From: Eledone cirrhosa | Lineage: Eukaryota | Direction: 5' to 3' | Length of the DNA stretch: 64,000 bases | NCBI GenBank assembly: GCA_964016885.1 | Contig: OZ024741.1 | Coordinates: forward strand, 172,298,001 to 172,362,000 | Shown: piece by piece, positions 14,390-15,897 of the stretch | How positions within the stretch are numbered: the stretch's first letter is position 1 | Layout of the letters: each line of letters starts with the position of its first letter | Made by a program: the position numbers and the translations under genes | Notes under the pieces: generated by a model | Databases searched by the model: none | Seen by the model: the letters and a program-made list of their open reading frames with translations, nothing else | Told to the model about the DNA's origin: nothing

Positions 14390-15897
14390 ATAAGTATGTA
14401 TACGTACATACATATATGTATACAGCCGTACAGTGGTATGTATATATGTACATACATACACACATATATATATATGTACGTATCGTTTTTATCGAACATT
14501 TATTATAATGCTCGGTTTGTTTGTAAACAAACAAACTGCCCGAATTAAGCCGTACAGTTTTTAGCAACGATCGTTGCCCTTTTGTTCAACACTGACAAAG
14601 GATCGATGTATTAGTTTGAAGCTTATTAGCTATCGTCAGCATCGTATACCTTCCTGCCAGATGATTGGACGTCTGAAAGTATATACTTTCCTTATGCATA
14701 TTAACGGGTGAGCAGCCTAATTTGCATATCGAGTGAGTTAGTCGGCTGGACGCACCAAATACAATAAATGGAAAAAATGAAACGAAATTTAATTTCTCAC
14801 TCTTAGTACGGCTTAACTCGGGCTCTTTGTTTGTTTACAAACAAACCGAGCATTATAATAAATGTTCGGTAAAAACGATACGTACATATATATATGTGTG
14901 CATGTATGTATATTTATATATGCATACTACTGTACGTCTGTATACATATATGTATGTACGTATACATACTTATATTTAAGTAACAGCCGTATTAAGAGTG
15001 AGAAATGAAATTTCGTTTCATTTTTTCCATATTTTGTTCTCAGTAGGCCCAGCCGACTAACTCGCTTGATATGCAAATTAGGCTGGCCAGCCGTTAATAT
15101 GCATAACGAAAGTATATACTTTCAGACGTTCAATCATTTGGCAGGAAGGTATACAATGCCGACGATAGCTAATAAGCTTGAAACTAGTACATCGTTCCTA
15201 TGTCAGTGTTGAACAAATGGGCAACGATGGTTGCTAAACACTGTACGGCTGAATTCGGGATGTTTGTTTGTTTACAAACAAACCGAGCATTATAATAAAT
15301 GTTTGGTAAAAACGATACCTACATATATATGTGTGCATGTATGTATATATATACATACTACTGTACGTCTTTATACATATATGTATGTACGTATACATAC
15401 TTATATTTAAGTAACAGCCCTACTAAGAGTGAGAAATGAAATTTCGTTTCATTTTTTCCATTTATTGTTTTCAGTGCGGCCAGCCGACTAACTCACTCGA
15501 TAAGCAAATTAGGCTGCTCAGCCGTTAATATGCATCAGGAAAGTATATACTTTCAGACGTTCAATCATCTGGCAGGAAGGTATACAATGCTGACGATAGC
15601 TAATAAGCTTGAAACTAGTACATCAATCCTTTGTCAGTGTTGAATAAAAAGGCAACGATGGTTGCTAAACACTGTACGGCTTAATTCGGGATGTTTGTTT
15701 GTTTACAAACAAACCCGAGCATTATAATAAATGTTCGGTACAAACAATATGTACATATATATGTGTGTGCATGTATGTATATATATAAATACTACTGTAC
15801 GTCTGTATACATATATGTATGTACGTATACATACTTATATTTAAGTAACAGCCGTACTAAGAGTGAGAAATGAAATTTCGTTTAATTTTTTGCATTT
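14390..15897 (+). mobile_element. Hammerhead-bearing tandem array (431-437-bp unit x2.5) plus one inverted unit
   Basis: Forward units start at 14806, 15243, 15674; 14390-14813 is an inverted permuted unit; flanked by (TA)n. Confidence 0.88.
15587..15623 (+). ncRNA. Minimal type I hammerhead ribozyme motif (mutated copies 15153-15195 + and 14604-14644 -)
   Basis: ATG-CTGACGA-tAGCT AATA AGCTt-GAAAC-TA-GTA^CAT; consensus stem I CGATG/CATCG; palindromic ACTAGT. Confidence 0.75.

Follow-up and report, generated by a model that had tools for sequence, protein, structure and literature searches.

How does a tandem array of a ribozyme-bearing repeat come to carry one of its own units in reverse at its head, and what kind of enzyme inserted it? 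We address this question for one array in a 64,000-nt stretch of Eledone cirrhosa DNA (the window, to which all positions refer), whose setting throughout is microsatellite-rich animal DNA. The array proves to be a genuine but decayed copy from an abundant retrozyme family; its anatomy is that of an ordinary Penelope-type insertion, and it adds a member to a known kind without being a new system. The element itself is best described as a dispersed, non-coding hammerhead non-LTR retrozyme with a 431-nt unit, which was likely inserted in trans by a Penelope-like reverse transcriptase (RT)/GIY-YIG enzyme through priming on two strands.

Alignment of the units bears out the arrangement given by the first-pass annotation, 2.5 forward units (14806-15899) plus one inverted, permuted unit (14385-14813), at the locus that it had delimited as 14390-15897; the ends are corrected to 14385 and 15899, and the one-sided tail of 56 nt and the (TA)n target, both overlooked there, are added (Table 1). 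The 3′ ends of both orientations run into (TA)n. Units are 89-95% identical in pairwise comparison, with changes mostly private to one copy, and the arms diverge by 7-11%, with private substitutions in every copy. Both arms, including the inverted one, cross the unit junction. At 431-437 nt the unit has the tandem, non-coding, low-GC organization over a few hundred bp that is expected of a retrozyme: it contains no ORF (the longest open frame has 67 codons), and GC content is ~32% across 14001-16000.

Table 1. Components of the array and its target, in window coordinates
Feature	Position	Strand	Remark
Left (TA)n target tract	14277..14384	none	
Permuted copy in reverse orientation, 429 nt (unit 174-431, followed by 1-167)	14385..14813	-	short end: unit 167 meets (TA)n
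Hammerhead motif, inverted copy	14606..14646	-	5-bp helix I, G12C, helix III palindrome broken
Head-to-head junction, exact 8-bp overlap	14806..14813	none	
Forward unit 1, 437 nt	14806..15242	+	
Hammerhead motif, unit 1	15154..15194	+	carries U4C; cleavage predicted after 15189
Forward unit 2, 431 nt	15243..15673	+	
Hammerhead motif, unit 2	15585..15625	+	core intact, U.U at helix II base, ACTAGT palindrome helix III
Partial unit 3, 226 nt	15674..15899	+	right end at unit 223, the fixed 3′ end of the family
One-sided tail, 56 nt (unit 168-223), between the two 3′ ends	15844..15899	+	includes a weak hairpin
Right (TA)n target tract	15900..15912	none	

The unit belongs to a family that is dispersed and abundant under two organism labels. 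We compared one 426-nt rotation of the unit with four of nine public runs, namely X1 and X7 (a RAD library), both labeled organism A, X4 (organism B) and X6 (organism D), and obtained matches in 7631 contigs of X1, 2282 contigs of X4, 9 of X6 and 62911 RAD reads of X7. A satellite confined to one locus, which the first-pass annotation had named as the outcome that would count against a retrozyme, is excluded by the thousands of contigs with a common 3′ end. Loose ends in (TA)n at 15465, the unit position of 15899, occur in 52 X1 contigs and 41 X4 contigs and coincide with a steep fall in depth, which together identify 15465 as the family's main 3′ end; recurrence is thus seen for the long end (unit 223), and the short end (unit 167) is known from this locus. 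Another ~24000 loose ends in X7, at 15443-15444, coincide with an AATT site; they could be artefacts of the library, and we did not count them. X1 and X4 contigs with letters of their own run round the unit junction, so the cyclic unit order is not peculiar to this locus. All three full copies depart from the family majority at 15466 (~99% C in X1 reads) and at 15482 (96% G), which indicates one source lineage for the three. Depth over unit 238-258, which is no measure of copy number, is >100-fold below the peak in X1 and ~60-80-fold below it in X4, suggesting that most family members lack this linker or differ in it; other sequence may occupy the position in most members, possibly that of an autonomous parent. 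Depth there (15480-15500) is also far under that of the neighboring unit 264-278. Exact-pattern scans of metagenome contigs, viral contigs and prokaryote genomes, collections unlikely to contain an animal repeat, returned nothing, and no RNA dataset appeared among the runs listed for the unit.

A type I hammerhead motif is present in 3/3 full units, and every one is damaged at this locus. The full-unit motif comprises a 5-bp helix I, CUGACGA, a U.U mismatch, a 4-bp helix II with a 4-nt loop, GAAA, the palindromic ACUAGU that forms helix III, and a GUA triplet. Its descriptor matched 3/20000 shuffles of unit 2, and in none of these was helix III palindromic. Lesions differ from one full unit to the next, as originally noted from the sequence (unit 1 carries U4C, the inverted unit G12C and unit 2 a short helix I), and to these we add a second lesion of the inverted unit, its broken helix III palindrome, which had been missed. 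Helix I of unit 2 is reduced to 3 contiguous pairs, and its predicted cut falls after 15620. T at 15160, the letter of the intact core, makes up ~99% of family depth in X1, X4 and X7, and the U4C lesion is therefore private to unit 1. The consensus had been called canonical, which overstates the match: in each of the three copies a U.U mismatch replaces the usual G-C at the start of helix II, so that none has the G10.1-C11.1 pair of the PLE (Penelope-like element) minimal-hammerhead consensus. Those two helix II positions are unchanged among the family variant rows listed. G at 15155, which restores helix I, is found at 96-98% in X1 and X7 and at 62% in X4.

This copy is old and probably inactive. 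U4C is reported to reduce hammerhead activity considerably (PMC3088659), and G12C to abolish it (PMC6908138). Two consecutive complete motifs, by which arrays are classed as "active" in bioRxiv 10.64898/2026.07.22.740005, are absent here, a sign of decay in this copy and not in the family as a whole. Because only the unit 2 core is intact, at most one cut and no monomer is expected from the units 1+2 dimer, and monomer release by this locus today probably cannot occur. The family ribozyme is predicted to act as a dimer through the ACTAGT palindrome. Against this, folding units 1+2 into a double hammerhead gives an energy 8.7 kcal/mol higher than that of the free ensemble, and in a Xenopus study 8/9 tested retrozyme dimers showed no cleavage (bioRxiv 10.64898/2026.07.22.740005). 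The monomer between the two predicted cuts, which the first-pass annotation had suggested folding as a circle, folds well in that form (z = -4.7, 60 shuffles), partly owing to AT-rich hairpins. No Rfam hammerhead model matched the units, whether at gathering score or in the list of 122 hits obtained for 11400-17000 with E<=10. Matches to Rfam miRNA families fell below gathering score on AT-rich hairpins and were set aside.

The microhomology at the head-to-head junction was used at this locus but is unnecessary for inversion. The 8-mer GTACGGCT at 14806-14813 is found at unit position 1 in forward and at 174-181 in reverse orientation, so that the strand switch through an 8-mer present in both orientations, as first proposed, is confirmed as an exact overlap with no extension possible on either side against the natural contexts. 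Since 8-nt inverted matches make up only 0.04-0.05% of position pairs within the unit, we take the use of microhomology here to be real. A third copy of the 8-mer lies inside the inverted unit, at 14424. Elsewhere in the family, at least five opposite-strand joints with five different breakpoints (among 15/42 joint rows listed) were recovered, all in X7, a single RAD library with 1-2 read starts for each joint; overlaps at the five are 2, 0, 0, 3 and 0 nt. Furthermore, a subfamily making up ~45% of X1 depth has other letters at 15415-15416 and consequently lacks the reverse 8-mer. Variation of the 8-mer in the family and the 0-3 nt overlaps elsewhere lead us to reject a programmed switch, and the overlap at this locus is opportunistic. 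Three X7 joints have an arm at 15416-15421, near the locus breakpoint, where joints were detectable within a span of only 18 nt, and we drew no evidence from them.

The inversion is not special to this array: 12 neighbors in the window and the published PLE pattern are alike. Among 56 segments between (TA)n tracts, 18 contain an inverted self-match, of which 2 are pieces of the array itself, 12 fit the head-to-head pattern and 4 do not fit. The arms of the 12 are head to head and reach (TA)n, and all 12 have a one-sided tail, which measures 36-108 nt in the 11 non-tandem cases. One of them (50831-54282) is a 5′-truncated PLE with a 415-aa ORF inside; its 91-nt tail belongs to the short arm, and the ORF-bearing arm lacks it. 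In two others, 43017-43400 and 26479-27654, the tail is likewise on the arm that is shorter at its 5′ end, and in 56999-57090 the two arms, a tail piece and a body piece, do not overlap, which makes it the cleanest case for two separately primed cDNAs. Because fold-back requires the tail on the arm that reaches further upstream, these four insertions need a second primed cDNA, and a fifth (56416-56690) probably belongs with them by inference. Conversely, five of the 12 are near-perfect symmetric hairpins with 1-4 nt spacers, for which fold-back is at least as simple an explanation, and one tandem case plus two unassigned ones do not decide between two primers and fold-back. The arms of 13334-13533 are symmetric, so we discarded it as evidence for two primers.

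Several of these neighbors have features of their own. The inverted arms of 50831-54282 are 99.6% identical, and 43017-43400 is a mini copy of this element; the pair looks young and has a hammerhead-like motif with a long helix II and a (TA) palindromic helix III. The arms of 26479-27654 have diverged (80-91%), the long arm begins with a copy of the short arm's tail, and its core motifs are ordered GAAA then CTGACGA. A second hammerhead family is represented by 13334-13533 and 56416-56690, fold-back insertions with tails of 68-72 nt, and has U.U at the helix II base, a GUA triplet and a helix III of 4 bp capped by a palindromic loop. Tandem units of 548 bp (2.1 of them) make up an array at 11945-13267, where the head is again inverted, the tail measures ~120 nt, the flanks are (TA)n and the junction overlap is 0 nt; a CTGATGA...GAAA core is present, without clear hammerhead helices. 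The right (TA)n tract of our array is shared with a PLE at 15913-20092. The ORF of this PLE (16701-19514, minus strand) is broken, and its N-terminal part contains a long insert rich in Asn; 15 bp are directly duplicated at 16466-16495, and the two ends of the element bear hammerhead-like motifs that differ from each other.

Protein comparisons place PLE-like ORFs in the neighborhood. Atlas look-alikes of the ORFs in 50831-54282 and 16701-19514 score 0.95-0.98 and include, on part of the members, HTH_animal, GIY-YIG and RVT_1. Pfam found 0 families at E<=0.001 in six PLE-like ORF pieces and, at a looser cut, weak RVT_1 (E 0.0024) and GIY-YIG (E 0.0031) matches. Within the window the unit has no homology to PLE flanks, and the ORF at 16701-19514 is ruled out as a parent, being without DNA homology to the unit. 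The unit lacks an ORF for RT and GIY-YIG, so that the array is not an autonomous PLE and is best read as a probable non-autonomous PLE derivative.

The anatomy of the array is that of a Penelope-type insertion. It is a partial tandem with a 5′-truncated inverted copy placed head to head and (TA)n on both flanks, and PLE-typical insertions are described as partial tandems with an inverted 5′-truncated copy, a one-sided tail and a bias toward microsatellites (PMC8557442, PMC3846280). That the inverted head, one-sided tail and (TA)n together make up this standard pattern had been missed initially. In vitro, both DNA strands are cut and extended by an anole PLE protein, which begins copying at two sites of the RNA, one on either side of the tail; it is predicted to be a dimer, and ribozyme cleavage is not required (PMC11167929). 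On this model, a multimeric or circular RNA of the unit would first be made, as the crossing of the unit junction by both arms suggests, and an endonuclease would nick both (TA)n strands. One strand, presumably primed at unit 223, would copy 2.5 units, and the other, presumably primed at unit 167, would copy 429 nt; both ends are observed. The two cDNA ends may then anneal at GTACGGCT/AGCCGTAC, where the overlap is seen, and point mutations have since damaged all three ribozymes. The original reading of a retrozyme-like monomer copied past unit length is supported by the dispersed family, its fixed 3′ end, the intact core and the arms that cross the unit junction.

A more specific form of this model, which we regard as doubtful, is that the locus is a direct footprint of circular retrozyme RNA copied from both target strands by a dimeric Penelope RT. 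One primer would have rolled 2.5 times round the circle, and the other would have completed one lap (429/431 nt) and halted at its own start. At 429 nt, the inverted arm is indeed almost exactly a unit long, the length expected from a single trip round a circle; this is a single observation. Three variant sites weakly favor a heterogeneous linear multimer over a single circle: the inverted arm is unlike units 2+3 at 15260 and unlike units 1+2 at 15473 and 15586, each a site at which the two units named have a variant in common. If a circle was copied, the locus, together with the neighbors whose tail is on the shorter arm, would be anatomical proof that Penelope enzymes mobilize retrozyme circles by two-ended priming.

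The same element and enzyme could also have produced the inverted head by fold-back, if the first cDNA ended at unit 1, paired by way of the 8-mer with the unit-174 site on the same strand and was extended, with itself as template, back to unit 167. Self-priming has been proposed for PLE inverted heads (PMC3846280), five neighbors are near-perfect hairpins, and the array fits this geometry: the 8-bp overlap is exact, the inverted arm is colinear with 15416-15843 and stops 56 nt before the array end, and the tail is on the long arm. The microhomology-guided template switch put forward in the first-pass annotation is accordingly possible at this locus, but it is not the best general reading, since fold-back is unable to make four neighbors of the same layout and family copies invert with 0-3 nt and without conservation of the 8-mer. 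The mismatching sites listed above also oppose fold-back, although weakly, as they number only three and two are CpG. We consider fold-back unlikely as the origin of this inverted head.

Explanations that dispense with two-strand priming of a retrozyme fare worse. A solo PLE terminal repeat might have inserted once and multiplied on the spot through unequal crossing-over before DNA repair introduced the inversion; local amplification of PLE termini has been proposed (bioRxiv 10.64898/2026.07.22.740005), and the drop in depth over unit 238-258, which implies that most family members lack that linker, would fit, as would the few variants that adjacent units have in common (two sites in units 1+2, one in units 2+3). 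We judge this history improbable, since (TA)n bounds both arms, the end of the right arm coincides exactly with that of the family, the unit junction lies within the inverted arm as well, contigs under two organism labels run round the unit too, and the 548-bp array at 11945-13267 has a matching layout. An artefact of assembly or of a folded-back long read, combined with a chance hammerhead motif, is very improbable. Inverted and tandem PLE structures are difficult to assemble (PMC8557442), but the 7-11% difference between arms, with substitutions private to each copy, already refutes a fold-back read, and the motif is rare in shuffles and intact across the wider family.

In comparison with known systems, the array has the sequence features of a non-LTR retrozyme and resembles one in how it would work. 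Like animal non-LTR retrozymes, the array has a non-coding tandem unit within reported sizes (150-450 bp; 51-972 bp) that is low in GC, strongly self-paired and equipped with one type I hammerhead per unit (PMC7229834, bioRxiv 10.64898/2026.07.22.740005), and like axolotl HHR_Amex2 it combines U.U at the helix II base with a 2-bp helix III (PMC7229834). Unlike animal retrozymes with documented RNA, cleavage and circles, it is known here from sequence alone, has no target-site duplication readable in (TA)n and lacks two consecutive intact motifs. In the passages available from PMC7229834 and bioRxiv 10.64898/2026.07.22.740005, retrozyme arrays are described with neither an inverted head nor a tail. 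More broadly, the portions of the literature consulted contain no description of this family or of inverted retrozyme heads, and the supplements of PMC7229834 and PMC4209133 could list the family; an octopus repeat annotation (PMC13282606) mentions Penelope-like families in the part available, where ribozymes and retrozymes are absent.

Resemblance to endonuclease-bearing PLE insertions (drawn from PMC8557442, PMC3846280 and PMC11167929) is one of layout, extending to the partial tandem, the head-to-head inverted copy with overlap (8 bp here, 15 bp in Pen2a_Av), the one-sided tail, the AT-rich target and a hammerhead upstream of the 3′ end; unlike them, the array has no ORF, and its tail is 56 nt long versus their 30-40. 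Its motif has the type I topology, short palindromic helix III and predicted dimeric activity of PLE minimal hammerheads (PMC4209133), among which ACUAGU also occurs in an Adineta vaga PLE motif and opposite-strand pairs 100-700 bp apart have already been reported, but it differs from them in its missing G10.1-C11.1 pair and in a 4-bp helix II behind U.U. Non-autonomous Chlamys elements such as MRC1 are likewise non-coding PLE dependants, multicopy and head-to-tail in microsatellites, although they are algal and most lack canonical hammerheads (PMC8557442). For the enzyme that moves animal retrozymes, the case has so far been argued from co-occurrence and terminal-repeat homology (PMC7229834, bioRxiv 10.64898/2026.07.22.740005), and a retrozyme array with the full Penelope insertion signature is a different type of evidence for the same link. 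The dense neighboring insertions also offer a simple genomic test of two-primer priming versus fold-back for Penelope inverted heads.

Other repeats share the window with the array. Hammerhead-like motifs also occur singly, at 38201, 47795 (minus), 55806, 29729 (minus) and 43991, and helix III is palindromic in several of them. A tandem repeat at 10010-10262 (42 bp x 6 copies) has two frames open. The window also contains a SINE, presumably cephalopod-like from its look, and decayed LINE copies with RVT_1 and zf-RVT matches at 3898-7331, 29769-31032, 34183-36630, 8589-9412 and 40471-41670.
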